Shown here one piece after another: positions 4,966 to 59,842 of a DNA stretch of 64,000 nt. Where the stretch lies: the NCBI GenBank assembly GCA_965649765.1, contig OZ287748.1, positions 75,082,001 through 75,146,000 of the forward strand. The letters are read 5' to 3'. This DNA comes from Bispira polyomma (taxonomy: Eukaryota). The position numbers were made by a program, and so were the translations under genes. The notes below the pieces were generated by a model. The model saw only the letters and a list, made by a program, of their open reading frames with translations. It made no database searches and was not told where the DNA came from. The first letter of the stretch is position 1. Each line of letters opens with the position of its first letter.

Positions 4966-7848
4966 TAAATTAAATCTTTCTGAAAAACAACATACATCTG
5001 AATTTAAGCACGATATATATGGTGTTTAATCTACAAAAGTTTGGCGTATAAATATCAAGAACTTTGGTACGGATAATAATTTAGTAGTATACAAATATAT
5101 GACAAATGTTATTGTAAATTTCTAAGACCAGAATTACTGGAAGTAGAAAGTATGGTCTTGTTTTGGGTCACGTGAGTCGTGACGTGCATCATCCTTGTAT
5201 ATGTCATGATTTCCCGCCTTCTTGGCAGACTAGAGTATTATTATACAAACTAAATACTGACAGATGTACAATTATTAATGTGTTGTGATTTTATTTAATA
5301 CTCTGTTTAGGAAATAAAGAACATCTCTGTTTATTGGAGTTTTAGATAGTTTGAAATGGGGATTTTTTGTATATGCCTTGAATTTAAGAGTGAAAGATTT
5401 TTCACGTTTGACTTTCAAAGTCTCACTTTTCTTGTTGAATCTATTGTATTTATATATTTATCTACCTTTATCAAAATGCTAAATGAACCTTTTCTAGACT
5501 GTCCAACTATGATATTCAGTATAGTAAACACTTATTTTAAAATGTTAACCAAAAATACTGACAAGTTTCTATTTGATTGTGTTAACAAAAAACGCTATAC
5601 TTATATGAACCCGAAAACAATATCTGCAATATGGGGATTAAGTTCCTACTACTTAAATGCTTATTTGTAAATTATTTTTTTTTAAATAATGGACACAGGG
5701 GCGTGTGTGAACCTTGTATAGGTATCTTGCTCTGACGTAAATAGTGGGCATGGGCAATGGCGGACAATGACCTCTACTTCATGGTGTTGTTTTAATAAAA
5801 AATATTTATCACTTTATTTATTGCTATACTTTAAAATGTTATTAACTTTGTCAGAAATGACTCCTCCCAACTTTGTTGAAAAGAAAAGATCTAATGAAAT
5901 AACCCTTTGCTTACACAAACACAGAATCAATGCCATTTTGATATTTAAACTATAATTTACCATCAATAAACATTTTACCCCATATTGTCGCCAGGCACCA
6001 TGCAGTGAAACCTGGTCGAATTATGACAAGGTGGTTCACATAGCCTTGTCAATGGCTCTTATTCATCAGGAGATTGTGTTATTGAACCATTATCTAGTAG
6101 AAAGGATTGAGGCCAAAAGTGGTCTCAGTTAAGACAAAATTTCAAGTTTGTATTCACAAAAAGTAGCAAGGCTTGAAACAGTTGTAACTTTGGGACCAAA
6201 TCTGAGAATAAATTTGATCCCAAATCTTTTATGAATATCTATCCATCCTAAGGCTGTTTTTTCTTTCAAAGTAAAAAGCAAACATTGAGATGTGAAACAT
6301 AATTTAGACTTAGCCACTTCTGTGAATATCGCCCCAGAAGATTGAGTTATTGAACTAATATCTAGTATGAGGGATTTGAAATGCAACTAAAGAGAGATGT
6401 TTGAGGGTGACAATTTATTAACTGTCCCAAAATTCTTTAACTTGTCACAGGGTATAGAACTTGAGAGAACATCACATTGTGTCTGTACGAGTTGAATTCG
6501 AATTTAGTTTGGTTTCACATAGCTTTTAACAGATTAGGTCATATCACACGAATGGCCAGATTCAATGGTGGAAGAAACCAGTGCTGAAACACTATAATTA
6601 AAGCTACAGCAAGTACCCAACGAGCTTTCCCACCTGAAGGAACAAAACAGGATTTGAACCCACATTGGTGAGAGGCCAGTGATTTTGAAGCAGGCACTTC
6701 TAACCACGAGGTGTTTCTGTTTTGTATGAGAGAAAATGGTTAATTTATTGAGTTGTTTGTGGTTAGCTTTGTGTTTGCTAGCTTTTCTGTTGCTAGCTTT
6801 GTGTTTGTTGCTAGCTTTTGCTGCTGCATATTGTGATGAAAGTCCAGGGCTAGTATTTTCGAACGTATACTCAGTTTAAACTTATACTCATATCCAAAGT
6901 CTAAAACTTAAAGTCATGCTGAAACTTAACTAACACATATAGAAGTCCGATATTAAAGAGATTAACCTAAACATGCTACCCGTTAGCTTTCAGTGACAAA
7001 TTCAAACATGTCTTCACGTTTTATGTATCTTACTTGTGGAAACAGACACATCACAGGACATATTTAGAAATTTATTGTGAGGTTTAAGTTCGCGACTTTT
7101 GATAAATACAGGTACAGATAAATTGGACCAAAGTTTATCTCGCAAAATGTGTTCGAATACATCCACCCATTAAACGTTACATTTGACAATATCGCCTGAA
7201 TATAGAATATGGAAATTAAGTGCAATATTTAGTAGCCGAAGTATATAATTAATTCAACAATAAATGTGTAAGGTAGCCCGAAGGGGCTAGCAAGGTCAGT
7301 GCTAGTAAGACCTTTTATTAAAACCATTCTTGTCCTGGTGAACCCAGAAATGATTGGTGCTAATTAACCCAATTAAGGCAAGAACTCCCGCCAAATAGCC
7401 TAAGGGGTTCATTATTAAGCTAAAAGTCAACAAGGCAGGACGCCATTTTTAAATATATACATTTTGTTTTTACTTGTGTGTTTCTTGGACTTTAATGTAA
7501 TAACCTGAAACCGAATCAGCAAGGAATGTACTAGATGACCAACTGAAGGCTCAGCCATCCTACTGGAGTGTTTCTAGGAATCAAATGCTTTGATAAATGC
7601 GAATATTGCTCTGGCTTTATTGTGGGGGCAACTTGTGAAGGGACGTTCTCAGTTCATTAATATCTAATCGTCTTCTAAACTATATTATCAAAACCACAAG
7701 CCCAAATATCTGCAATTATCAAAGCACGATTCTGTATATTATCTTTCAGTGAAATTAGATATAAACATTTATAGTGGGAGGACTATAAACCCATGGAACT
7801 TTGGACTAGAAACTGTAATAAGGTAACTCTATATGAACTGCACGAGGG

Positions 7849-8827
7849 ATGGCACCCCGTAAACTGAAGATAATGCTAGTGACTCTGCTCTGTCGGCAGC
7901 TGAGGTAAACTTGAGAATACTCCAAGAGCTGAAAGATCTAGGAAAAGCAGGATGTTGAAAGTTGAAAAGAGGGTGGAAACTGATGGACAGTCTAAAGTTA
8001 ATCCCGTTCAGAGAGCATCAGCTGTACCTGTAATAAACAAACATTCACTCTCAAATGCTCAGTCAACGAGCCAACCTCAGCCAGTTAACCCCTTGCACAC
8101 GACAGATTATAGCAGGCAGCAGACCCGCTGGACCACAGACTTAGATGACCTTGTGGTACCATCACTCCAGACCCTCAGGCAGTCGGATCAACTACAGAGA
8201 GCTGTTGACACCAGACTGAAGGACTTACAACGGATGAACCAAACAGGTAATTTCAAGTCACAAAGGGGGGGAACAGAGACTGTCTGGGTCAGGCAGCAAG
8301 TACCATGGCCACAAAACTTTATTTTGGGCGGACAAACTAAAACTCGTATGTCATACGACAATTTGTCGATGGCGCAATGTGTATCTGGATTTAGTACCAT
8401 AATAAGGGAAGAAACTAACCTCGAGGTAAAAAACGCAATGCTTGAATATATGTCTGAGGTAATGGAAGATTGCCACGACTTTGGTTGGAATGCTGCCAAA
8501 GGCAGCCATGCTGTCCTCCTGTGTAAGATGGAGGAGGGCAAGGCGAATTGGCTCGAAACCCAAAAAATTGACAGAATTCGGCGAGCTCATGCTCAAAGGG
8601 GATCAAATTTGCATGGTTTTTCACATTCCCAGGGTCAAAACAAAAGTAACAGTAAAAAAGGTATGCCGTGTATTTATTTTCAGAAAGGTACATGTCCTCA
8701 AAAAGGGGACCATGACACGGCTGGTAGATTGTATTCCCATGTTTGTGCAACTTGCTCTGCTCTAGGCAAAAATCTCCCACATTCGGAAAAAGATTGCAGA
8801 AGAAAAAACAATGCAAAAAACGAGTAA
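7849..8827 (+). pseudogene. Gag-like ORF of YR retrotransposon with C-terminal Cys/His finger
   Basis: ORF 7952-8827 ends in CIYFQKGTC...H...HVCATC...H...C. The upstream ATG at 7849 (MAPRK) and the coiled segment ILQELKDLG connect to it only via frameshifts. Confidence 0.75.
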
Positions 8828-11121
8828 GGCACTGCAAAACGGCAGTGCCACTCAAGATTTACAATAAGACTGACAGATGTAGTGACTATCAGAGCAGACC
8901 ACGTTTCACCTCTGTAAGAAACATTTACAATTCTCATGTATATAATGGTAGGAGTGACAACTGGAGAGCAGACTGGGCCAGGTTTGTACATAAATCCTAT
9001 GCACAAGTTGTGCAGCAAAACCCCCTAAATGTCATTAAAACCAACAGCCAAATTCAAGTCGAAACAGACAAAAACAACAAAAGGTTAGGGAAAGTCAAAA
9101 CTCTCCCCAGCAGTCACCCTAATAGTGTGTATATTGTAAATAAAAATAAATGTGTACTGTCAGATTCTACTAGCCCATTCAGAGCTAGAAATGTGTGTAG
9201 CCAAAAAGGTGTCGAATATAAAACAGCATTGTGTGCTAGGTCCACAGTAGAATCAAATACTAAGGGTGAAAAGGTTGACAAATCCTTTACTGGTAAAATA
9301 CCAATCAAGCAACACAATAGAGTCAAGCTCCGCAACCGATTTGACCCCCTTGTATCTGTCATTGAGTGTGATATCCCTGAATGTGACACTCGTGTTGCTA
9401 TTAGCCCATTACACAAAGGCAAAATAATCACTCATTCTGCTGACACACACGAGGATAAATACAACCTTCAATTACAAGTAAAACCTCGGCATAGGGAAAT
9501 ACTAGCCAAGGCTAAAACTGATGAAACTTTTCAAAAATAGAACAGTCAAAATCGGGCCAAATTTGGTTATATTCCTCTGGGGCCATTAAAAAACCCATAA
9601 CTGATCAGGAAAATGAGCATAATTTTTCAGCTCTGCAGCTCCACAAAGAAATAAAAGACAGCAATAAATTCAATTTTATGAACAAGCAATTCACTGTCGA
9701 ATCGGAACTGAACCACGTGCGCTGAAACGAACTCCTAAAGGGTTATTGGGACACCCAATTACCGTTTTTAATCCAGTATGGTTTTCCCCTTGACTTTGAT
9801 AGGATTTGTAAATTAGCACATAAAGATCAAAATCACCACTCGGCGTGTGAGTTCACAGATGACGTTAAAGCTTACCTAACTGAAGAGAAAAATCATGGTG
9901 CCATATTAGGCCCTTTTAAAGAACCCCCGATCAAGGATTTACATATATCCCCGTTTATGACAAGGGAAAAACCTGGCGCCCCTCACAGAAGGGTTATTAT
10001 AGATTTAAGCTTTCCTCGGGGTCAATCAGTTAACGCAGCTATACGTCCAAATCAATACCTTGGCTCAGAATTTCTGTTAACACTTCCCACATTGACGACG
10101 TCACCAACAACATCATAAAACTGGGTAGAAATGCCCTGATCTATAAGCTAGACATAAGTCGTGATTTTCGCCACGTTAAGCTAGATCCAGCGGAGTACCC
10201 AGCAGTGCCTACCATTTGGCTACAGGCACGGAAGTGCTATTTTCCAGCACCTCAGTGACGCAATGCGTTTCATAATGCGCGTCAGAGGTTATGACGTCGT
10301 CAACTATATCAATGACGTCATTGGGTACGGCAACGCACCTGACGTCCATGGCGCCTATAAAACTTTACAGGAACTGGTCAAAGATCTAGGTTTTGCGATT
10401 AGTGCAAAAAAGCTCGTGCCTCCGACCAGCAGAGTAACTTGTCTTGGAGTCCTTATTGACGCAAAAAACTTTACAGTGGAAGTTCCACCTGAAAAATTAA
10501 GCCTAATTATTCAAATATGCGACACCTGGGCAGATAAAAAGCATTGCTCCAAAAGAGAATTACAATCACTGCTGGGCTCGCTTCTCTACATATCCAAGTG
10601 CGTAAGGATCTAAATTGGTTCACAAAATTTGTAGGCAAATTCAATGGCAAAGCATTCTTTGACCATAGCCCGGTCACTGACCATATTGAGCTAGACGCAT
10701 GTTTAACAGGTCTGGGTGGCAGATGTAATAACATAGTGTACACAAAGGAACTTCCTCTCAATTACCTAGAGATGACCATAGTGCATCTAGAAATGCTGAA
10801 TATATTGGTAGCCCTCAGAGTGTGGCAAGATATATGGCAAGGCAAAAAACTGGTCATTCATTGTGATAACCAATTCTGAACTCAGGCAAAACCAGAGATC
10901 TAACCCTGGCAGCAATTGCACGCAACATTTTTATGGAAGTAGCCAAAGCTGACATTAATATCAGGCCGGTCCACATCTTAGGCAAACTTAATGTAACAGC
11001 AGATCTGTTATCTAGGTGGCACAAGGTTATTCACCCAGAAAATATATTACAGCAATTAGTAACAGAACCATGCTGGGTGACTGTCCCAGATCAAATGTTG
11101 GCAATTGACTGGAGTATATAA
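8743..11121 (+). pseudogene. Reverse transcriptase-RNase H (pol) of YR retrotransposon, disrupted
   Basis: RT motifs LIQYGFPLDF, HGAILGPF, ISPFMTREK, RRVIIDLSFP, YKLDISR.FRH, LPFG, and YINDVIG (YxDD mutated). RNase H motifs LDACLTGLGG, HLEMLNILVAL, HCDN, NVTADLLSR. Stops at 9540 and later, plus frameshifts and deletions. Confidence 0.88.
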
Positions 11122-11131
11122 TTTATTTCAG

Positions 11132-12121
11132 ATTTACCTCCCTTGGTGTGTCGGCTAGCAGGGCAAGCGGCTCACACAGCCCATCAGGCTTTCAGGCCTG
11201 CCACTCAGCAGGCCTACCAAAATATGTTCAAGGTTTTCATGGCTTACACAGTATTTGTAGGTGTCGATTTGACACAGATTTCAGTTTTATTTGTTCTTTC
11301 ATTTCTGCAGGTTCTATTAGCCAGTAAAGTATCCCAGCCATCAATTGCCAACTATTTGGCCGCTATAAAAGCAAAGCTTAGCCTATATGGCATTGACACA
11401 AGTCCATTTGCAGATCCACGTATAAAATACTTTCAAAAAGCAATGATTCTACAAAGACCTTTCAAAGCTAAAATCAATAAAGTCATTGACATCTCGCTGC
11501 TAACTCAAATAGTACAGACCTGTGATTCAATGTACATGGGCCAGGTGTTTAAGGCAGCCTATCTACTAGCCTTTTTTTTCCTTTCTAAGAATTTCTAACC
11601 TGGTCCCACACACGGTGGCTACCTACAATCCGCTAGAACAGTTGGCCAGGGCTGATGTGTTATTTGCACCCCCGGGGCTTCAACTTATTATTAAGTGGTC
11701 CAAGACTCTTCAAAACAGAAATTTAATCAAAATTCTTAAAGTTCCGCGTATACACAACTCAGTCTTGTGCCCAGTGGCAGCCATAAGAAACCTTCTTGCC
11801 ATTTGTCCAGGCTCAAATAATTCACCTCTGTTTCAGTTTAAGGCAGTAAATGGATGGATGCCTCTCACGGATTCAAAACTAAGACATAACCTAAAGCAAA
11901 TTTTGTCAAGACTTAGTCTAAATCACTCCCCAATTGCCTTTCATGATTTCAGACGATCAGGGGCCACCCTGGCTTTCAACAACCATGTCCCTCTCCAAGA
12001 AATTCAAAGCCATGGCACTTGGACATCTGAGTGTGTCTGGAAATACATAACAACAGATCATAACGCCTCAGACCAAGTAGCCCTGGCTTTTCAAAATTTG
12101 CTTTCTCTCCCTACTTTCTAA
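11132..12121 (+). pseudogene. Tyrosine recombinase (integrase) of the retrotransposon, frameshifted in the T-run at ~11572-11579
   Basis: N-terminal AFRPATQQAY..., catalytic R region (LRISNL across the frameshift), WSKT, HDFRRSGAT, HGTWTS...KY. The frame opens without an ATG directly after a tttatttcag acceptor. Confidence 0.88.
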
Positions 12122-12235
12122 GTTGGGTTTGGTGTTGTTTTTACTTGAAAATATACATAAAATAATATACTCATGTTATCAAGGCTAAGCCCTCCTGTAT
12201 CACAAACTCAAAACTGAAAAAAAAATAAAAACTCT

Positions 12236-12420
12236 ATTTAAGGTTACCCTAAACTTAAAACACCATCTTCAAGTTAAGATGGCCTTAAACTCAAACTTGG
12301 CATCTTAAATTAAGATGACCTTATACTCGGAAACTTAATCTCACGTTAGGGTAACCTTAACTTAAAACTTTTAACTTAATCTCAGTTTAAGCTGTCGCTT
12401 ATGACAACCTTAAACCTGGT
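12236..12420. repeat. Cluster of nested palindromes
   Basis: ttaaggttaccctaa (~12238) and ttagggtaaccttaa (~12346) are inverted copies enclosing ccatcttcaagttaagatgg and catcttaaattaagatg hairpins. Confidence 0.7.
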
Positions 12421-13769
12421 GGGCTTAGTCTTCAGTTCTGTATATAAAGTAGATTAACATAGAATAAACTAATTATCCCAAGGCTATTCTCTTACTTAGT
12501 TATCATCACTTCAAGGTCAAATAGGGCACTGTACAATATACTCTGTTTAATGTAGAGTACGGTTTCATAAATTGTTAATTAGTCAGAAGTAATTAGAGAT
12601 GTTCTGAGAATAAAAATAAAGCAGGTTTATAGGGTGTCATTGAATTAAGCTGTTGTGTTATGGTCAATTAAATCTGGGTTTTCAAGGAGAGCTTCTACTG
12701 TGAATAAATGTCAGTAAACATACATGAGATTTAATTTGGTCTAAAGTATGAACTCCATAATACTCACTGGTTTAGAGGTGATTCAATCATAGGTAATAAT
12801 ACTAGAAACAACATTTCTCTATATATTAACTATATAAACTTCCAGAGAAAAGGTGACTGAGGGCTTGTACACAGGAAATAAAACTTACACCTACTATTTT
12901 GTTCAGAGTTGCACTAACATTTGATGTAGGTAGTCTTCAAGAACATGTTAATGACGTCATGTGAGTATATTTTGCGCACAAAGAGCATGTCTTAGGCATG
13001 TGGCTTTGATGCAATAAGCAATGTTTATGGAATGACTCAGTGGCAAAAACAAAACCTTGTCCAAAGCTCTATAATTTCCAATATACATGTAATGGTAATA
13101 AAGTGTAAATTACTTGAACCTGAATAATATTGTGTGCTATTGTATTAGCTTTTGTTAGCATTTATATAGCACCAAATTGACGACCCAATATATCCCTACT
13201 TTAGGTTGCTAATTCTTATAGAAGGGATTGAACTACGAAATAGCATGTGTCGTCCTCAGAAGGCAATTAATTGTGTTCCCATCTGATCCAATGTTATACA
13301 AACAAAAACCATTGAGATTCAGGAGGGGTTTAACTCGGACAGTATTAAAAATGCTTCTGACCTAGCCAAAACTTGGGCTTATCCATGACTTAATTTCGAA
13401 GTCTTTGTTTTAGCCAAGGCATTGTTTAACATGATTAAGGACTTAAAACGCTAAAACACTAATATGATGTGTCATTTGAAACTTTTTAAAAATTGCACAC
13501 ATTAACATAAATTTCTGTGTAAATGACATTGACCAAATATTGCAATGGACAAATGTATTGGTAAAAGAAACCAGTAACATATACATGTACAGGAATTTTT
13601 ATATTTACTTTAAACCAGCGATTCACTAAAATTACACACCTTCCCACCTTGAATTTAGAGTTCATTACAAAAGCTTGCCTGTGAGTAATTTTGGCCTCAT
13701 TCTGAAAAACAAGATGGACGCCAGACGGGCTTTCTTTGAAAATAATCAGGATTTTAACTGTTTTTCTTA

Positions 13770-14630
13770 GCTGTAGAAGGATGAATCTCTTCACATGTGA
13801 TATGTTTAACGGATATATATGTCCTGTATAAGCATGCAGACATTTGACCTTGAATCTCCTCATTTAAGGTCTTTGACAGAGTGCCAAAGTACCCCAAGTG
13901 CCTCATTTTGGTTAAACTTAAAATGTCCACACCTCTCTTAAAATTAGTGCTCAGATTTGACCAGGGCCTCTCCTTCAAGGTCAAACAGGGATGGCCAAAG
14001 TTAAAAGTGCCTATATCTCGGATTATTTTTGGTCAAACAGGTTTTGGATGTGAAACCAACCTATAGAAAATCATGGCCTGGAAATCTTTTGATGTGGTCC
14101 GATTTGACCTTGGGCCCCTCGTTCAAAGTCAAATGCAGATGGCCAAACTTAAAAGTGCCTATATCTCGCTTATTATTAGCCCCAGAGGTTTGGAATATAA
14201 AACCAATCTGTAGGAAATCGAAACCTGGGAATCTTTTGATGTGGTATGATTTGACCTTGGACCCCTCGTTCAAGGTCAGTCTTGGTCAAACTTAAAAGTG
14301 CCTATATCTCGCTTATTATTGGTTGTAGAGGTTTGGGATGTGAAACAAACCTATAGAAAATCATGGGCTGGTAATCTTTTGTTGTGGTCAGATTTGACCT
14401 TGGACCCCTCTTGCAAGGTCAAATGAGTAGGTCAAACTTTAAAGTGCCTATCTCACACTTATTATTGGTCCCACAGGTTTGCAATGTGAAACCCACTTGT
14501 GCCATTTAAGGCTTTAGCATAAACGCATAGGCTTCTAGCTTGTGTGCTAGCTAGGGTGCTTGCTACCTAGGGTGCTTTGTCTTTCTGGTGGATACAAATA
14601 TGCATCAGTTCTCCGATGTGCTAGGTCTAG
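13770..14630 (+). mobile_element. HINE/Helentron-like non-autonomous rolling-circle element with ~147-bp internal tandem repeats
   Basis: Units start gatttgacc at 13954, 14101, 14248 and 14391. The 3' end has the subTIR tggtggatacaa, a hairpin gcatc...gatgt, and CTAG-TT. An inverted homologue lies at 35249-35768. Confidence 0.75.
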
Positions 14631-15730
14631 TTTAGTTTGGGTTTAACTTTGCTATGTATAAGTATGTACTACATCACAGTAGCCTATAGCTTCCTGGTAG
14701 AGAAAACCAATACTGTACACCACCAACCATAAGCAAATCTACTGCCAACTTTCCCATATGTATACCCATGGCCGAAATTGAAACCCTCGATTGGAGAGGT
14801 GGGAGTCACAAGTGTTACTGGTACATCACCGAGACCTGGAAGTGATTCTGAAACCAAAACTCTTTTTACCACAAGGCTTGATACAAATAACTTTGTGACA
14901 AAAGCTCTCAAATTTCTTGCAAATAGATCAAGGTTCATCACCAGAACAATGCCTTGTCATGTGCTTGATTTCTATTTATAAATGAAACAAAAGAACGAAA
15001 ACATTCCTATTTCCGTTTCTCTTTCAGTTTTATCTCAAGTGTGATTTACATGTGATCATATGAAGTGGCGTCAGCTGATAATGTTTATCCATTCTACCAA
15101 AAGGACAGAGCCAACAGAGGTATATCCAGGACATATTACTGATAACGACAATATATATTAATAGCACTTAGATACACACTCTGGAGTTATGTGATAAAGT
15201 TTGCTGTTGTTTCTTCCACCAAATACATCATGTTTCTGACTCTTCTGCTCCAGAAATAATAACTAGATGGACTTGGTACGCAGCACTTGGCAAAAAACAC
15301 AAACTCTAGCTTGTCTGTTCAAATAGTTGTAAAACACATTTTCTTGACTCTCCCTTGTAGACACATACAGATTAACACATTAAAGTGGAACAGAGAAAAA
15401 TACCTCTTTCCACTTAACAGGGTGAATTTGAAAGAACATGGCCTTTGTAGGACTACACACTTATCTGGTTCTACTTAAAGTGGTTTTGACTGTATTATTA
15501 AAACTAGTTTGTTGCAAAAATGATCAGCTTGCCAATCTTCTAAAGGCAGAACAAATTCTTTTTTTTTTGATAAAATTGTGTTGCAAAGGTATTGCAGAGT
15601 TTGATTACACTACTGATCAGTGTTCATGCAAATGTGCAGATATGAAGTTAAATGTAGATTCTCATGGGGAGTAAAAAATGGTATTGTTTTTTCTGAATGC
15701 AGATTTACTGTCTTCACTAACCAGCTGTTA

Positions 15731-42515: not shown

Positions 42516-43001
42516 TGTTACATTTAAGGGGAAAATGTAGGCATAGAATCGTTTAGTGATGCTCTAACTAGATTTATTAAAACAAAGAAACCGGAATCAT
42601 TGACAAATTAACTGGCGCCAGTGTATACAAACAAAACTCAACAAATGATTACTAACCAAATGAAATATAATATACAATAATTTTGTAGATAAAATACAAC
42701 AATACATAAACAGTCTACTGGAGGGGTGATCTAAACTGACTGACTTTTGAGTTCTACAAGTTCCTAAATTAGGCTGGTCACAGTATATCATAAAACAGTC
42801 CGGTAGAAAAGTTGTTCAAATTAACATCTGAGGTAAACCCATAGGTGAGAAGATACACGGAAGAACCCTGTTCCTGGATCCCTGGACAATACACTAGATA
42901 AGTACGCTCAATCCGGAAGTGGGAAGTGGCAATTGGTGGAGCGGTAAACGATACACCGCTGTGAAACAGCTCAGTAGTTACAGGTCAGAAGTTACACAAC
43001 A
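42516..43001 (-). repeat. 3' LTR (486 bp)
   Basis: Differs from 47930-48413 by 4 substitutions and 2 one-base indels (manual comparison). Confidence 0.96.
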
Positions 43002-43074
43002 TACCTACACCCTTAGACAATACTCTGTATTGTACCAAGCTCAAAATAATAACCTTCACAAGAACCTTCTAAAC

Positions 43075-44870
43075 TTACACTCTACTTAAGTAATCTGCAG
43101 CCACATTCTCAGAACCCTTGATGGCTCTAATTCTAAAACTAAAGGACTGTAAACATAATGCCCAACGCATTAACCTACTATTATCCAGCTTGGCTCGAGT
43201 GAGATAAACAAGAGGGTGATGGTCTGTCTCAACTTCAAATTCCCTTCCATGTAAGCTGAAAATTTCTTTACAGCCCATACTAAGGCATAGCACTCCTTTT
43301 CTATCACCGAATAGTTCTTTTCTCTGGGCAATAGCTTTTTGCTGGCATATTCAACAGGAAATTTTCTGTCCTCATATTCTTGAAGTAGCACCGCCCCAAT
43401 ACCATTTTCAGATGCATCACATTGCAAAACAAATGACTTGTTGAAATCTGGCAAGTGTAAAATGGGCCTCTTGGACAATAATTCTTTCAAAGCTCTAAAA
43501 GCCTTCTCCTGTGGCTCTTCCCACCTCACTTTATTTGGTAGTCCTTTCCTGGTCAGATCTGATAGTGGTGCTGCAACAGCGCTGAAGTTTGGAATGTACT
43601 TCCCATAATAGCCAATAAAACCCAGAAAACTGCGCACTTGTTTTTTGGTAACTGGAGCTGGTACAGATAAAATATCCAGAATTTTATCTTCCTCCGGCTT
43701 CATTCCTCCTTCACTGATCTGGTTGCCAACAAACGTGAGGTCCTTAAATCCAACCCGGCACTTGGATGGTTTCACGGTAAGTCTGGCTTGTTTCAGCCTT
43801 TCAAAGAGACTCCTCAACTCACACATATGGTCCTCCCAAGTAGCAGTATGACAAAGTACATCATCTATATAGCTGTCAGAGTTACTCAGGCCCTTAAGCA
43901 ATTTGCGTGCCATCTTGTTGAAAGTGGCTGCTGCATTGACAAGTCCAAATGGCATCTTGAGGAAACAAAAACTGCCCTGAGGTGTAAGAAAACAGGTTTT
44001 TCCTTGGCTACTTTCATCAAGCGGAATCTGCCAATACCCCTTGGTCATGTCAAATTTGCTGAGATATACATGTCCATGCAATTTTGTGTAAATATCATTG
44101 GCTATCATCATAGGTTCCGTCGAAAATATGGTCTGTAAATTCAGCAGCCTAAAATCAATACAGAAACAAATCTTCCCATCTTTCTTTTTGACCAGTACTA
44201 TTGGTGATGCAAATGGGGAGTCACAGACACGGATTACCCCTAGCTTCAACATTGAATCAACTTCCTCAGCTACTGTATCTCTCATATGATATGGAACTGG
44301 ATAAGGCCGTCTCCTAACTGGTTCTTCATTGTGAAGCACAATTTTGTGTTCTACCAGATCTGTAGTACCAGATAAATCTGAGAATATACTACTGTATTCC
44401 AACAGTAACTCCATCACCTGATGTTTCTGCTCAACTGTCAAATCTGGATTGACTCTCACATCTCTATAAGTCTCTGTCTTCTGCTGAGGATACGTGTCCA
44501 TTAGATCTTCCTCCAGAACAGCGTTACCTTCAGGCTCTTCTTCAATCAGGGAGACTGCCACCACATCAAACGGGGAACCTCCTGAACTCGCAACTATTGA
44601 GTCTTCACCTTCCCCCCTCTGTTGTAAGTACTTCTTTAACATGTTTGCATGGAATATTTTTTCCTTGTCTTTCATTCTAATGGCATAATCATTTAACCCC
44701 TTGACCGCCACCACCTCATATGGACCCTTCCACGACATCAACAGTTTATTGGCCTCAGTGGGAAGTAACACTAAAACTCTGTCACCAACTTTGAAATTTC
44801 GGGGTTTGGACTTTTTGTCATACCCAGTTTTTGATCTCGACTGTGTCTTCCCAAGTTCCTCATGAGCTCA
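43075..44870 (-). pseudogene. Gypsy pol C-terminal part: integrase C-terminus, RT, RNase H
   Basis: WKGPY, SPIVLVKKKDG, FDMTKGYWQ, MPFGL, YIDD, CDAS, IEKE, TDH and NVAADYLSR motifs. Frameshift at ~43250. In-frame TGA at 44870-44868. Confidence 0.92.
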
Positions 44871-46277
44871 TTTACAGGTTTCTTCTAATCTGTTCCTGAG
44901 ATCAACCACATATCCATAAGTTGTCTTGACTTCATCTGATGTTCCTTCTTTAGTCCACAATTCATGTAGTATATGCATGGGTCCTCGAACTGTCCTTCCA
45001 TACAATAGCTCAAATGGTGAAAAACCTAGGCTGGCTTGCGGTGCTTCCCTGTATGCAAATAACACAGCTGGAATGTATCGGTCCCAATCCTTCGGTTTTT
45101 CCTGACAAAGTCTTTTTATCATGGACTTCAGCACGAGATAAAATTTTTCCACTAACCCATTACACATCGGATGGTAAGGCGTGGTTACCATTTGTTTGAC
45201 GCTTAAAAGTCTTCCAATTTCCTTCATGAGATGACTCAAGAACTGTGTACCCTGATCACTCAGAATCTCTGACGGTATACCAACCCTGGTGAAAATGTTG
45301 ACCAGTCCTTCAGCCACTGACTCTGTGTCGATAAATTTCAAAGGTATAGCTTCTGGATATCTTGTCACATAATCTATCAAGGTCAACATGTAGCGATGTC
45401 CACGATCAGATACGGGAGTGATTGGACCAACCAAATCAATAGCCACCCGTTTGAAGGGTGTGTCGATGAGCGGCATGTTTTGAAGTGGCACTCTGGATAC
45501 TCTTCCCTTTGGGGTAGTTCGCTGACAGATGTCACAGGAATTACAGTATCTGTTGACATCATCCTGGAGACCAGGCCAATAAAAGTTCGACATGATTTTG
45601 TCGCACGTCTTTCTGATCCCAAGATGCCCTCCCATTATTGTTTCATGGGCTAACCTCATGACTTTATTCCTCAGACTGCGTGGCACAACAAGTTGCTTCA
45701 CTAAGTTTCTATGAGACTGAAACCTTCTATACAGCAATCTGGATTTAATCTCGAACCAGGACAGATTCTTCCCTCTAGTTCTTGACTGGCGACCTGACTC
45801 AGCCATATCCCAGTACCGCCTCAAACTACTGTCATCCTTCTGGTCTTGAATTAAACTTTCAGCAGTAACACTGATGTCTAACTGTGGACTCGTATGCAAA
45901 TGCTTTGCTGGTGACTTGCTTTTAGCCACTTGATGTCTAGTTTGAACCGCACCAACACAGTCACTAACAACCGGACTCGCACATCCAACTGAAGGTATCG
46001 TCTCTTTGCTGTTCCAATTAGGGTCAGGATCACCAGGTGATCTGACTCCTGGAATGTTTCCTAATACCAGGGGACACACAGGCTTGTCCATGCACATTGC
46101 TTCTACTATCCCAACATAAAAGGGTGTGTTGACCTTTATCCTAGCCGTCTGTACTCTTTTCACCGACCCATCTACTAAGATACACAAATGCGTTTTGCCG
46201 GTAAGCTGCTTGTCGTCGACCAAGCTGCGCTGAACCACTACTCCTGAACATCCTGTATCCCGTAATGTGTCTATCAC
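44868..46277 (-). pseudogene. Gypsy pol N-terminal part: aspartic protease and integrase
   Basis: LRDTGC protease motif; HHCC (HETIMGGH...CDIC); DDE residues in DLVGP, SDQG and GLVE. Confidence 0.92.
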
Positions 46278-47406
46278 TTGAGAGTCAACACGGTCATATT
46301 TCTCAAAACCGATCTTCTTTCTTTAGTCTGGTCACAGGCTCCACTAACTATAGGCACATGTCTTCCACAGGCTAATTTTAAGGAGTCTTTCCCGACACAG
46401 TCCTGTTCACATGAATGTACAATGCAAGACGAGGCTTCTTGCACATCTTTGTTACCCTTTTGCTGCATATGACCCTTCACTAACCCTCGTAAATCTTCTG
46501 ATATAACTGAGGCCACAGTTTTTGTCCAGGACATGACCTTGACTCGACAATCCTTGGCAATGTGGCCCAACTTGCCACCCTTGAAACACTTCCTGTCCTT
46601 ATTTCCTGTCCTTACGGGAACACTGTTTTCTTTTACCGGCTTCCCAGGTTTAGCCGATGCATGAAAAGTGTTTAACTCTGAATGGGCTTCCAAATACATC
46701 TCAGAGAGTTCCGCCATTTCCACAGCCGTCTTTGGATTCCTCTCCTTAAGAAAAACTGCCAGGCTCCTACTACTAGCATTCAGAAACTGTTCTCTGACCA
46801 ATAAATCCACAAGTCCATCATATGTGTGTTCAGTCCTGCTAAGATCCACCCATCTTTTTAAATAGTTATGTAGCCTAACCGCAAACTGACTTGAGCTCTC
46901 ACCATTGACTATCTTGCTAGAACGGAACTTGATGCGAAAACCTTCATCATTCATCTGATATCGTTTGAGTAAAGCCAACTTAAGCACTTCGTAGTCATCA
47001 GCCTCAACGTCACTCAGTCGAGAATAAACCTCTAGAGCAATTCCTGTCAAAAGCGCACTCAAGTGTCCGCAGGCCAGTCTTGACTTTCAGCAAAACGCTC
47101 AAATCGTAGAAGATAAGCATCAATATCTGTCTTTCCATCCTCGAACACAGGTAACTTAGGTACCCGAGACTTGGCAGAGCTGTCTCTCGCTGGAACATTT
47201 GGTTCAGCTCTACTGGAAATATTTGCAGCTTCCACCTCTAACTCCTTTACCTCTTTTTCTCTCTCTACCATCTCCCTTTCATGTTCTCTTCTAAGCCTTC
47301 GTTCCTCCCTTTCTCTCCCTTGTTCTTCACTAACAAAGTCTCTGAGCTCTACTCCCTCATAACCTAACTCCTTTCCGAGTTTTACCAGCTGTTCTAGCTG
47401 ATCCAT
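46274..47406 (-). pseudogene. Gypsy gag with SCAN-like capsid C-terminal domain and mutated zinc knuckle
   Basis: DIDAYLLRFER; LVDLLVREQFL...FLKERNPKT; CFKGGKLGHIAKDC (second Cys lost); frameshifting deletion at ~47060. Confidence 0.88.
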
Positions 47407-47529
47407 AATGTAATAGGTGCCTTACAAACTCTTATTCTTTTTGGGGAAAATTTACCTTAGGCAAGGCCTTGTAAGACAACTGCACCTACTACAACACCTA
47501 CACACCGTCTGACTAATCACACAGACACT

Positions 47530-47750
47530 GAGAATCCACTCAAAATTAGCAATTAAGAGAATCCACCCAACTACTTTTGCTATGATAACCATACAGCCAA
47601 CTAAATTAGTTGCAATGAGAATCCACTCAATTAAGTTAGTTATAAATGAGAATCCACTCAATTAAGTTAGTTATAAATGAGAATCCACTCAATTGGTACT
47701 AATCCCACCAATATTTCACCCAGTTTTCCTTTCAATGAGAATCCACTCAG
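47530..47750. repeat. ~31-nt tandem repeats in Gypsy 5' leader (gagaatccactcaattaagttagttataaat)
   Basis: gagaatccac repeated at least 6 times. Confidence 0.8.
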
Positions 47751-47910
47751 AGAACTAATACAAAGCTAGGAACACACTCAATCCAGCAGTCTAATAAAAT
47801 ACCTTACTGCTGACCACAAATAATACTATATACCAACCCTGAACTTACTAACACCTACAGCCTACAAGGACTAAACCACCATTATACAACACTATTAACC
47901 TAATTTGAGC

Positions 47911-47928
47911 ATCATGGTCATGGCACCA
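47911..47928 (-). promoter_or_regulatory. Primer-binding site, tRNA-His-like
   Basis: tggtgccatgaccatgat directly after the 5' LTR; 14/18 match to TGGTGCCGTGACTCGGAT (tRNA-His 3' complement, recalled from memory). Confidence 0.7.
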
Positions 47929-47929
47929 A

Positions 47930-48413
47930 TGTTACATTTAAGGGGAAAATGTAGGCATAGAATCGTATAGTGATGCTCTAACTAGATTTATTAAAACAAA
48001 GAAACCGGAATCTTGACAAATTAACTGGCGCCAGTGTATACAAACAAAACTCAACAAATGATTACTAACCAAATGAAATATAATATACAATAATTTGTAG
48101 ATAAAATACAACAATACATAAACAGTCTACTGGAGGGGTGATCTAAACTGACTGACTTTTGAGTTCTACAAGTTCCTAAATTAGGCTGGTTACAGTATAT
48201 CATAAAACAGTCCGGTAGAAAAGTTGTTCAAATTAACATCTGAGGTAAACCCATAGGTGAGAAGATACACGGAAGAACCCTGTTCCTGGATCCCTGGACA
48301 ATACACTAGATAAGTACACTCAATCCGGAAGTGGGAAGTGGCAATTGGTGGAGCGGTAAACGGTACACCGCTGTGAAACAGCTCAGTAGTTACAGGTCAG
48401 AAGTTACACAACA
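47930..48413 (-). repeat. 5' LTR (484 bp)
   Basis: Direct repeat of 42516-43001. Confidence 0.96.
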
Positions 48414-54332: not shown

Positions 54333-55481
54333 TCAGTCTTTCCACCATCTTTCTAGTTGTGCCTCGCTGTCCTGCCAGTTACTGTTTTTCACCGCTTGCC
54401 ACTGTTTCTCTTCACCCCGCTCAGTAGAAGGTGGCGATATGTCCTCCAGTCCAGAGGTCAAGGTTGTCATTCTTCCAAAAGAGTCATTCAGACCATGCTT
54501 CGGTGAAGGAAGTTCATCCCACAATTCTTTGTTGTGACTATGACCCTGTACAATGTCTGATTCTACTTGAAATCTTAAAAATTTCTTCTTACTTAAGTCT
54601 TCTCTACGTGAAAGGATCCTGTACTTTTCTTTCGGATGAACCTTCATTTGATTTAATCTAGCACCTTGGTTTTCAGAAGGAATGACAACCAGTTTATTTG
54701 TCTGTCTGTTTAAAATTCTTTGTTTTGAAGGAAACCGTAATCTTGGCGTTTCTGCTTCGTATTCATCTGTATCACTACTTGAACTACAATCAGGCACTAT
54801 ATCTCTTGGCGTAACTACATTTATATCCACTACGTTGATGCTGTTTGGTTTTCCTTGTCTCTGTCTCAATAATGGACTTCTCTTTGTCAGACACTCCTGC
54901 GTAGCACGGCTTATGTCACTATGCCACTGTCTAACACTAGAACGTTCACATCTGTTAACATTGCGAGGCGTGTTCCATGAGGTAATAGGGCCAAGGGATT
55001 GTCTCAGGACATTCTGCTTTTCCTTCAGTGCATCTTTCCCCAGACGAGGAGTCTTGGGACTATTATTTTCATTGCTACTATTCTCTTCATCCTTGACCTT
55101 TTCAGATGCTGGGGACGGTTGCAACAAGCATGCAATATCCAAGGCTGGTAGGAAGGTGGGTCGCTGAGGCCGCTGCTGTGGGGCTGCCTCGTGGTTTTTG
55201 GGGGTAAATATAACATTTCCTTTTGGGGTCACAATACTCCCGAGGTCTATGACGGAAACATTGTTTCTGTAGTGAGGAGTAGCAAACGACACCTCCGGTT
55301 TCCAGAACACGTTTTTCTTGTTACTCTGCGTCCTCTTTGGGGAGACACTACAGTCACCACTTCGATCTGTACCGAGCGCTATCCCTTCCAATGTCAGATT
55401 CAAACCTTCACTATCCTCGTTAATATCCAGAAGATTCAGCTTTGGAACAAAATTTTTAGACACCATGATATTCGCAGTCAT
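54333..55481 (-). CDS. Uncharacterised 382-aa, largely disordered protein encoded by a single exon
   Basis: 1149-nt ATG-to-stop ORF in AT-rich DNA where long ORFs are otherwise confined to genes and TEs. Acceptor-like tattgtag| at 55535-55533 upstream. No TE motifs. Confidence 0.75.
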   Translation of the reverse strand: MTANIMVSKNFVPKLNLLDINEDSEGLNLTLEGIALGTDRSGDCSVSPKRTQSNKKNVFWKPEVSFATPHYRNNVSVIDLGSIVTPKGNVIFTPKNHEAAPQQRPQRPTFLPALDIACLLQPSPASEKVKDEENSSNENNSPKTPRLGKDALKEKQNVLRQSLGPITSWNTPRNVNRCERSSVRQWHSDISRATQECLTKRSPLLRQRQGKPNSINVVDINVVTPRDIVPDCSSSSDTDEYEAETPRLRFPSKQRILNRQTNKLVVIPSENQGARLNQMKVHPKEKYRILSRREDLSKKKFLRFQVESDIVQGHSHNKELWDELPSPKHGLNDSFGRMTTLTSGLEDISPPSTERGEEKQWQAVKNSNWQDSEAQLERWWKD

Positions 55482-58197
55482 ATTGTATAGAGATATATGT
55501 TATTTTGATCATGCACTATATTGATGATATACCTACAATATATATAGATGAGTAAATACAAAACAGAAGGTCTGCTTTATAAAATACATGGACCTCTTTG
55601 ATAGACATTTCATAAATAGCTGTTCAGAAATCTCTCTATTAGAATCATCTCACACAACAACAAAAGGTGTGTTTACTGCCTTGATGTTTTCTGGTTGTTA
55701 GGCATATACACATAAACGGACACACACGCACACAAGCTGAGCAAAGCTGAGCTAAGCTATTGATTGGTTGATGACCTCGCTGCATTAAGCAATGGGACGG
55801 GATCTCCATAATAACAACAATGTGTGTAACCATAACTAGCGCACTATAACTAGCACAGGGAAAACCTATTTATTGATGGGATTTGTTGGGCTAGAAAAAA
55901 AAAAGGCAAAATGTTTGAACAAACTGGAGACATTTCTGTATGCATGCCAATACTCTGATATGTTTTATGCATCACATTGTATACAAACACTGTTGTCAGG
56001 TACTTTTTGTTTAGGGTGGATCAGTGATTTGGTTTTCAGAGTAACTTCACCTTTTTTTTTCTTCTTTTGTAATGTGACTTGTGGGTGGAAGTAGAAAAAA
56101 AGGTGCAAATTCAGTTTGGGTCTTAATTTTAACCATTGTAGGCGATGTATAAATATATATAAATAAATGTAGTGAATCTCTATTATCCAAACTTATAATT
56201 TCTGAATCTTAAAATTTATAACTAATTTCCACTCTCTCGCATTTATATTTTGTTGAAATTACTGTCAGCACCACATCTACTAAAATACAAGCTTCTATAC
56301 CTGCTATTGTCTGAATAAGATGTTGCCCCTCAAACTATTTGGATAATAGGGGTTCTAAAATGTATTAGATACCTAATACAGAATCCATACATTTTAAAGG
56401 CCTATTTAAGAAAAGGAAATCAATTCATCTGTTATTATATACATGTATAATGATAACATATCACCTCACATACAGAATCCATACATCTTATTATTACAAG
56501 TGTCTACTTAAATATAAGAAATCAGTTTCTGCTGTTTTTATTTATATATTATAATAATCAATTAAACTACTTAAAGAAATAGAAACAATTTCTACTGTTA
56601 CTATGTCCAGTAAAATCCCTTTAAGTAGAACTCTGATAAGTGGAACTGTTGACTAGAAGTTAGTTTAAAATCCCATTGCTACCTTTTTAATTGAAATTCA
56701 TACTGTTAAGTAGAATTTTTGTTCAGTAGAACAAATATTATGGTCCGTTCAAATTCGACTTAACAGGGTTCCACTGTAAATTAATTATAATGACGTATTC
56801 AATTAGCTATAAAGTATTACCCTGTAAAAAACAAAATACTATAGCCTATGTCCAAAAATACTATAGCCTATGTCCAACTGCAAGATTCTTTAATACAGGT
56901 GTGTGGGAAGAACTAAATGAAATGTCAGACGCCACAAGATTCAGACGATTATGAACAAAGACCTTTGAGACCCAGTCTTCAGTCGGATGTGTGGGGATAT
57001 ATTGTTACCTTTATTACTCTGTGCTCAGTGGAAATACATGTATCACAATAGATAAAAATAGATGGCTTGCTCTGAGGCATTTCCACAGAAATTACTGTAA
57101 GCACTACATCTTTACATTACATCTACATTACATTTATATTTAATTTTAAAGCGCCTATTTATAAAGGCTTCACAATTTTAAAAAGTATAAAGAAGGTACT
57201 AAAAGAAAAATGAAGGCATTTTAACAGTTGTACACTGATTTAAATAAGTAGGTTTTGAATTGTTTTGTGAACATCTAAAACTGTATTGCAACATGTCAAC
57301 CTGATTGGCCGTGAGTCTGTTCCACAATTATGGTACTGCTGAGCTAAATGCACAATCTCCCAAGGGTTTTACAGTTAGTTTTTGGGACTGACAGTATCAC
57401 AGAATACTGTATAATTGAAACACCCATATTTGAACATATGGAAAAAATCACAGTCAAGATACCTTTAGTATTATATCTGCTGCCAAGAAGGTATTATGTT
57501 TTTGGCCTGTTTTTATTTGTTTGTTATCTCCACCAAGAAGTTACTACTTCCTTTACATGACTTTGTTTGTGGAAGGATGGGGCATGGGTTCTGGAGTGGA
57601 TCGTATAAGGTTTGATACAGGATTATTTTTTACTTTTTTTTGGCACAAAGCGGTTGGTACATGGTTAGAAGTATAGTCCAGTCTACGGAGTGCCTTCCTA
57701 GATTTAATTAGAATATTTAAATCTGTGCTGTGCTTCATTTAATACTAAAGCAAAGCCTTCATTATCCAAATACAACAAGATTTGTCACAAAATGGAAGGT
57801 TCAGAAAATTATAATTTGAATTTACATACAAGTTTGAAGAGTAAAAATGAGTGACAAAAATTTAATATTTAGATAACAACGGATCAGTGACATCTGACTC
57901 CAAAAGTTTGGCTTTAAAAAACATTTTCTGCAACAATCTTGTGTGATAAAATGCAGACCACAAGTAAAAGTTAGCAACTAGAAGGGCACCAGGTATAGCA
58001 CATACCTCTGGAAAAAACCTAAATCCTGATACCACCTTTTTACCCAGATCTGTTCAGTAATTTTTATAAAATCTTGGTGACAGACAAATAAACAAACCAA
58101 CGGACAAAGGTGGAAAGCTAACCTCTTCGGCAGAGGTAAAATTGTCATTACTTACTCAATTTTTTTGTAAGATTACTAGTTTGTATAATTAATTATA

Positions 58198-58636: not shown

Positions 58637-59842
58637 ATCTAATCTAGTCGTACTTTTATAGCGCTTAATCTTTGTACAACAAATTCTAAGGCGCAACAAA
58701 CCCAAAACGTTAATCGCAAATCAAAAATAGTGGGCGGATGGAAGTCGTAACCAGGGAGACTACCGTAGATGGTTGCGACGGCTAAGGTGGAAAAGCCTGT
58801 TCAAAAAGATAGGCCTTCAGCTTACTCCTGAAAGAGGAGAAAGTTTGAGCCAGGCGAACATGATCAGGTAGGCTGTTCCAAATGAGGGGGCCATCATGAG
58901 CTAGGCAGTGATTGAACTGAACTTTGGATTTGTGGATGCGAGGGTCGAAGGTGGGAATGTTAAGGTATAATTTATCAGGGTTACTGCGCCTAGTCCTGAC
59001 TGAGCATGTATATTTGGATAAATGGGGGCTAAAATAAGTGGGTAATCCAGAATTTAGAAATTTATATATTATTGTTGCTGTTTTGAAAGCAACACGATAT
59101 TTTATTGGGAGCCAGTGCAGTGACTTGAGTACAGGAGTAATGTGGGAAAATTTAGATGTTTTGGTCACAATACGTGCCAATGAGTGTTGGATATTCTGAA
59201 GGCGTCTGAGATCACTACGAGATAAGGAACGGAACAGAGAGTTGCAGTAATCAAGCCTGCTGCTGACCAAAGCATTGGCAACAGTGACTGCAGTGGATTT
59301 GGAAAGATAGCATCGAATCCGCCTGAAATCACGGAGGCCAACAAAACATGATCTACACACCGATGCGACATGGTTCGAGAAGGAAAATTCAGAGTCGAAC
59401 ACCACGCCCAGGTTTCGTACTTTTTCAGCTGGAAAAAACCTGCTGCCAAGAATGTCAAGTGGAAAACAGCTGGACAATTTTTCCCGTTGCGACTTGGAGC
59501 CAAACAAAATAAACTCAGTCTTCTCAGGGTTCAGCTTGAGTTTATTTGCTGCCATCCAGTGTTGTACATCAACAAGGCAGTTCTGTAAGGAAGTGAAAGC
59601 TACCTGGGCAGAGTCAGGTGTAAGGTGGATGTACAGTTGGGTATCATCAGCATAGAAGTGAAAGTTTATGTTTTTGTATGCAGCAATAATCTTGCTGAGT
59701 GGGGTGGTGTACATGGAAAACAAAATGGGACCCAGGACGGAACCTTGGGGAACACCAAATTTTAACCATGTTGGGTCGGATAAGATATTGCCAATTTTGA
59801 CTGATTGGAATCTATCAGATAAATATGCCGTGAACCACTTAA
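58637..59842 (-). mobile_element. 5'-truncated L2/CR1-group LINE (RT C-terminal half, open frame 59842-58782)
   Basis: GVPQGSVLGP, FYADDTQLY, SRLDYCNSL, LHWLP and LKAYLF motifs; 3' UTR ending aagcgctataaaa...(GATTA)n; TSD gctgcta at 58630-58636 / 59843-59849. Confidence 0.92.

Follow-up and report, generated by a model that had tools for sequence, protein, structure and literature searches.

A predicted spliced Gag-recombinase mRNA in Ngaro-like retrotransposons, traced from a copy in Bispira polyomma

Introduction

How does a retrotransposon translate its tyrosine recombinase (YR) if the respective open reading frame (ORF) lies behind the frames for reverse transcriptase (RT) as well as RNase H (RH) and opens without an ATG? 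The question is raised by a stretch of 64,000 nucleotides (nt) from Bispira polyomma (assembly GCA_965649765.1, contig OZ287748.1, positions 75,082,001 to 75,146,000 of the forward strand), hereafter the window, in which gag-like, RT, RH and YR frames are all found on one strand (~7850 to 12120). So far, the translation of the 3' recombinase ORF of YR retrotransposons has rested on an untested frameshift suggestion. PMC13003380 cites Poulter and Butler 2015 for a YR of Ngaro elements that overlaps with RH in the -1 frame and whose probable mode of expression is programmed frameshifting. The initial annotation of the window had called YR expression poorly resolved, which passes over this published hypothesis; for the clade studied here, the present data speak against it. 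The annotation itself proposed an mRNA in which splicing fuses the N-terminal part of Gag to the recombinase.

We find that the clade probably makes its YR from such a spliced subgenomic mRNA, joining a phase-1 donor within gag to a phase-1 acceptor behind the RH stop. We assign this reading a probability of roughly 0.78. The anatomy of the element, the phases of both sites and the conservation of both signals are directly observed.

Splice sites and reading frames in the window copy

The last base of the predicted first exon is G8246, followed by GT at 8247-8248, and the cut is in phase 1 within the gag frame (7904-8827). The acceptor AG (11130-11131) is in phase 1 of the YR frame (11122-11598), such that 2885 nt separate donor and acceptor. 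Recomputation thus reproduced the coordinates, both phases and the gap as first annotated. Roughly 90 nt are deleted in pol of the window copy, and the intron of an intact element would therefore be longer than 2885 nt. With GT donor, AG acceptor, T-rich tract and matched phase, features of a U2-type intron are present.

To score the sites, we used approximate splice-site matrices. The donor ranks 1/241 among the GT sites in 7271-12120 and 17/3503 across the whole window; respective ranks of the acceptor are 5/327 and 57/3570. The donor, first described as strong, is without the consensus G at +5, and equally good donors are found about 0.3 times per kb of the window (acceptors: about 0.9 per kb). 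Since similar scores are this common, the pair by itself is only modestly above chance and merely suggestive.

The RH frame ends with TAA at 11119-11121. The YR frame is the same frame as that of RH and starts right behind this stop with zero overlap. As first described, it opens without an ATG: the earliest in-frame Met is encoded at 11224, beyond the conserved N-terminal helix, and a GTG (11146) occupies the position where some YR relatives have Met.

Conservation of the donor in Gag relatives

Donor conservation was assessed for the 120 listed of 374 Gag relatives, whose core identity ranges from 32 to 99% (median 54%). Of the 117 relatives without a gap at the Gly that the donor splits, 116 have retained this residue. 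The residue after it is chemically mixed (K 99, T 9, M 7, R 2, A 1); in 117/118 cases it is K, T, M or R, i.e., a residue with codons that start with A and are able to end in G. The second residue after the Gly (F 65, L 34, C 8, S 6, Y 2, I 2, V 1) can be encoded T-first in 115/118 cases, and the residue before the Gly is never one whose codons cannot end in A. Together, these choices spell the consensus donor. The whole pattern is fitted by 109/118 rows, while the next-best Gly column reaches 48/113.

We also related individual columns to their background. The +2 column is the only one of 132 variable columns with at least 97% first-base agreement. For a tree-based comparison, 118 of 121 rows were placed on a tree computed from downstream columns only. 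Here, the +1 column shows 9 residue changes and 0 first-base changes, which is matched by 4 other columns of 175, all of them with conservative swaps. Three such tails in neighbouring columns, at a position named beforehand, are unlikely to arise by chance.

Conservation of the acceptor in YR relatives

Among 168 YR relatives, 82 align to the N-terminus of the profile. In 28, 6 or more residues upstream are visible; the median identity between pairs of these is 33%. On the protein level, a phase-1 acceptor corresponds to the signature [STPALIV][GDE] behind T-rich codons. This signature is found at most 7 residues from the YR helix start in 24/28 relatives, compared to 250/1057 (24%) of internal windows. 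The residues F/L/I/Y/C/V account for 84% of the positions before the junction vs. 20% after it. When back-translated, a matrix score of at least 3 bits is reached by 24/28 relatives in phase 1, by 2 in phase 0 and by 9 in phase 2, where the comparison of phases is biased, since phase-0 TAG acceptors are invisible in open frames. Across 200 shuffles, the count averaged 13.6 and never exceeded 20.

The acceptor might be real while the main donor is located upstream of gag (with a non-coding leader, as known from retroviral env) or elsewhere, such that YR is translated as a free protein from its own ATG or a near-cognate start. A donor-like AAG/GTAACT at 7820-7828 (donor position 7823; rank 4/241), located upstream of the likely gag ATG by about 26 nt, would suit this scenario, and so would the YR relative P0001, which has a Met six codons past the acceptor. 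Called starts are found at the same place in 27/82 relatives. On the other hand, only 1 of the 28 informative relatives, namely P0001, has Met at the helix start, and 8/28 have one within their first 16 residues. Furthermore, a non-coding leader needs no acceptor phase, yet phase 1 is observed in 23-24/28 relatives, and an upstream donor leaves the donor signature within gag unexplained. We thus consider a free YR unlikely. An own YR ATG was nevertheless named at the outset as evidence against a fusion, and it probably exists in at least the P0001 subclade, where the acceptor signature is kept as well.

An intact distant relative

Motif scans resulted in 8 loci, of which tblastn identified L006 as the sole true relative; the other 7 were dropped. 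L006 has intact ORFs, whose Gag and YR products are about 24% and about 39% identical to the family proteins. Its pol passes the Pfam cut-offs for RVT_1 and RVT_3 and has no methyltransferase (MT) match; the long Cys-rich N-terminal part of pol (about 290 residues) is without Pfam match.

RH of L006 terminates with I-D-F-S-I-stop at a place homologous to the RH stop of the window, and we rejected the idea that the latter is a decay mutation on this ground. Directly behind the stop of L006 follows the acceptor TAATTTCAG (TTTCAG), again in phase 1 (rank 4/229), and the first Met of its YR is found 52 codons in. Within gag, the Gly-Asn aligned with the donor Gly carries a phase-1 GT; the best GT of L006 gag, located 12 codons further on, is also in phase 1.

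L006 also bears on the question whether ribosomes enter YR from the pol frame, be it through a programmed frameshift or through stop read-through, either of which would yield an RT-RH-YR polyprotein. The -1 overlap of YR start and RH end reported for Ngaro (Poulter and Butler 2015, as quoted in PMC13003380) is present in L006, where it measures 49 nt, and absent from the window copy. In the window, YR is in frame behind the TAA, such that read-through is conceivable, and P0289 comprises RT-RH-YR in a single frame. However, the two frames do not keep a constant relation (window 0, L006 -1); for fungal Ngaro elements, PMC3783388 likewise reports that either frame occurs. No slippery heptamer is present at the RH end of the window or L006, while the same scan finds two at the gag end of the window. 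The RH stop is at a homologous place in both elements, and the upstream extensions of the YR relatives, which lack conservation and are rich in T, run up to the phase-1 AG signature. An RT-RH-YR polyprotein is therefore quite improbable.

An intron is favoured because the frame relation of RH and YR drifts while the phase of the acceptor stays fixed. Stop and AG are 13 nt apart in the window but 9 nt apart in L006, and an insertion in the tract before the acceptor is found in one contig of the window's organism; both are expected of intron sequence.

The Gag-to-Pol junction

The gag end of the window carries a slippery heptamer in codon phase followed by a hairpin (Table 1), whose strength is reached by 0/1000 base shuffles. 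A -1 slip at this heptamer leads into the pol frame, and a second slippery heptamer is located at 8803. Among 96 complete Gag relatives, 73 end with K-N plus at most one residue. Gag-Pol is thus likely made by -1 frameshifting at the end of gag.

In L006 (2949-2959, reverse strand), pol is in frame behind the gag TGA, and a phase-1 AG (rank 12/229) follows 10 nt after the first base of this stop. Here, pol may be expressed by read-through or via a second acceptor for the same gag donor; this is a single case.

Weighing the evidence

Several observations weigh against the predicted Gag-YR splice, in addition to the frequency of similar sites and the own start of the P0001 subclade. First, no product was seen. 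The junction of 8246 to 11132 is absent among the 15 joints listed of 139, which stem from contigs of three runs of unrecorded kind. No fused Gag-YR protein is found among 150 profile matches, and the search of proteins longer than 392 residues provided no such fusion either (its one match is an RT-RH-YR read-through). As the protein libraries apparently consist mostly of unspliced gene calls, the missing fusion is a weak negative.

Second, the conservation evidence is mostly back-read from protein rather than DNA, many relatives apparently stem from few assemblies, and donor and acceptor are available on one molecule in only two elements (window and L006). In L006, the donor at the aligned position is weak (rank 23/263). 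With regard to individual donor columns, +2 ranks only 12/175 on the tree, and the property of the -1 column is common to 7/137 columns. The motif G-K-F-K-S-Q-R-G-G is conserved as protein, too. For YR, the called start coincides with the helix start in the 27/82 relatives mentioned above, where ATG is indistinguishable from GTG/TTG.

Could both sites be coincidental, with protein constraint preserving the Gag motif and a spacer in front of YR that is simply AT-rich? The strong protein conservation of the residues behind the donor Gly and the abundance of sites with such scores would fit. But radical swaps (K to T/M; F to C/S) are confined to cases that leave the donor bases intact, and the spacer is T-rich, not A-rich. 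Neither the excess of the acceptor dipeptide over its 24% background nor the recurrence of the same acceptor in the DNA of L006 is expected by coincidence, which we regard as very improbable.

In summary, the conservation of sites and phase suggested for inspection in the initial annotation was found for the donor Gly, the acceptor signature and the acceptor of L006. Its Gag-recombinase splice is thus strongly supported with regard to both sites and their phase in distant relatives, while the fused protein was not found. We hold a splice into this acceptor to be very likely and are somewhat less certain, though still confident, that the predicted splice starts from this donor.

Element anatomy and classification

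Coordinates of the element's features are compiled in Table 1.

Table 1. Predicted features of the element in the window (slash: predicted cut).
Feature	Coordinates	Strand	Basis
Likely gag start codon (M-A-P-R-K, cf. relative P0061); here not in the reading frame of main gag	7849..7851	+	
Main gag frame (374 relatives): conserved block of helices, core, Cys/His fingers at the C-terminus; without Pfam match	7904..8827	+	
Predicted 5' splice site CAG/GTAATT, phase 1, within conserved Gly codon	8244..8252	+	site scoring, conservation in relatives
Predicted intron, 2885 nt; would remove Gag core, RT and RH	8247..11131	+	inferred from sequence
Poorly conserved leader frame of pol, in -1 to gag	8728..9540	+	
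Predicted -1 frameshift signal: heptamer A AAA AAC in codon phase, then hairpin of -19.7 kcal/mol	8815..8853	+	
RT, in pieces	9624..10604	+	
RH, in pieces; terminates I-D-W-S-I-stop; no MT behind	10538..11121	+	
Branch-point-like TTGAC (weak), T-rich tract, 3' splice site TTTCAG, phase 1	11105..11131	+	sequence, conservation
YR without ATG near its start; frame change near 11570-11598 breaks the ORF	11132..12121	+	
3' non-coding region, multi-copy, hairpin-rich; element ends undefined	12122..12600	+	

The 5' end of gag, RT, RH and YR are each interrupted in the window; the copy is therefore dead and cannot itself make the predicted protein. Contigs of three runs from one organism span the whole element, with more than 1200 records each and most of them below 95% identity, i.e., the element is a diverse multi-copy family.

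The traits of the order DIRS are present: RT and RH, combined with a tyrosine recombinase rather than a DDE integrase. Phage_int_SAM and Phage_integrase match the YR of this broken copy with E-values of 7e-4 to 4e-5, below the curated Pfam cut-offs, while the relative P0001 passes the cut-off; no rve (DDE integrase) match was found in the 8 frames scanned. RVT_1 and RT_RNaseH are weak in the RT and RH pieces, which align to L006 at 38-46% identity. By position, size and Cys/His motifs, the window gag suits a Gag-like ORF1; it is without Pfam match, its Atlas clusters are unnamed, and the cluster look-up gave no informative names. Rfam provides nothing at gathering level in window positions 6500-13500 or in L006, and among viral and metagenome contigs, no locus matched the YR queries.

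DIRS1-like and PAT-like elements carry an MT domain according to PMC4157794 and PMC9210276. No MT was detected in the window copy or L006, and the 13 nt (window) or 9 nt (L006) from RH end to YR start leave no MT in between. In place of the inverted terminal repeats with internal complementary region (ICR) of DIRS1-like elements, the window copy shows only a 16-nt inverted match (7541/12422). Since there is no MT between RH and YR, the classification scheme of PMC4157794 points to Ngaro rather than DIRS1-like or PAT. We thus label the element Ngaro-like, a label drawn from structure. Comparing 6000-7900 with 12051-14000 revealed no split direct repeats of the Ngaro arrangement A1-ORFs-B1A2B2, though truncation of this copy is possible, and a hydrolase ORF was not noticed in it either.

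Some further observations concern the element's ends. Positions 12238-12437 comprise a perfect 15-nt inverted repeat (12238/12346) and several short hairpins, with a higher contig depth than over the ORFs. A similar G/T-rich motif is located behind the YR stop of the window (12124-12133) and L006 (about 5125-5135), into which P0015 and P0016 read through (S-W-G-L-G); it is possibly a conserved cis signal. L006 (1-5882) was assembled as a cycle with a terminal overlap of 197 nt (98% identical), which is compatible with collapsed direct repeats without proving them.

Other features are located elsewhere in the window. A retrotransposon with 300-nt long terminal repeats (99% identical) is encoded on the reverse strand (42682-48393); its gag contains SCAN and CCHC, and its integrase precedes RT-RNase H, a Gmr1-like order. 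Also on the reverse strand are an RT-bearing frame of 354 residues (58785-59846; RVT_1, by look similar to a long interspersed nuclear element) and a stop-free frame of 388 residues without Pfam match (54336-55499). Tandem arrays are located at 32643-33831 (44-nt units), 29892-30492 (39-nt) and 13774-14632 (about 142-nt), the last of which has an inverted copy near 35250-35730.

Discussion

Given the predicted splice, the unspliced RNA would be both the genome and the message for Gag and, via -1 frameshifting, Gag-Pol, while the spliced RNA would encode ~130 N-terminal Gag residues fused to ~330 YR residues. The predicted Gag exon comprises residues 1 to about 129 (range 115-164), i.e., two conserved blocks around a variable Ser-rich linker, and excludes the conserved core and the C-terminal fingers. 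An N-terminal Cys/His motif is part of this exon in 71/120 relatives and was not seen in the window copy. If the splice occurs, the Gag exon would surely supply the start codon of YR. The Gag piece might in addition tether YR to assemblies of Gag, a guess to which we give somewhat less than even odds.

Retroviral env and the env of insect errantiviruses are translated from a subgenomic mRNA from which one long intron removes pol; the unspliced RNA serves as genome, and gag and pol are joined by frameshifting. Similarly, the intron predicted here would remove pol such that the 3' gene is translated. In contrast to env, this 3' gene encodes the enzyme of integration, and what is retained of Gag would amount to about 130 residues instead of a short leader.

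For plant Ty1/Copia elements, a spliced subgenomic RNA is described in PMC5580714. As in this case, our element would be a retrotransposon that balances its proteins by splicing. The plant RNA reportedly makes Gag, whereas the spliced RNA predicted here would make the recombinase.

Among YR retrotransposons, the element shares with Ngaro the order gag, RT-RH, YR on one strand, the absence of MT, and little or no ORF overlap. It differs in that neither split direct repeats nor a hydrolase ORF were found in the window copy, and in that conserved splice signals point to a Gag-YR mRNA rather than to the frameshift proposed for YR. Elements of the DIRS1-like and PAT-like groups resemble it in YR, RT and RH, and Pat1-like elements in their zinc-finger Gag, but differ by their MT; DIRS1-like elements furthermore have inverted repeats with ICR and long ORF overlaps. 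PMC4157794 describes Ngaro elements as abundant in a mollusc and a cnidarian.

We are thus likely dealing with a known kind of element that has a conserved, testable and so far undescribed route of YR expression. Our literature search found no report of a Gag-YR splice; the original Ngaro paper (Goodwin and Poulter 2004), the 2005/2015 reviews and Repbase reports were outside its reach, such that a prior mention is possible.

The conserved donor and acceptor define the junction to the base, such that RNA-seq data already available would suffice to check it. If the prediction is true, the real recombinase bears a Gag-derived N-terminal extension that is missing from current ORF annotations, and splicing would serve to control how much genome RNA there is relative to integration enzyme. 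More tentatively, and at odds we place slightly below even, a whole animal clade of Ngaro-like elements may follow a retrovirus-like three-way plan: Gag from unspliced RNA, Pol by frameshift or a second acceptor, and YR as an obligatory spliced fusion to the N-terminus of Gag, whose Gag piece docks YR in the Gag assembly that holds the cDNA. If so, this docking would answer how the substrate is found by an enzyme that is not part of the Gag-Pol polyprotein.

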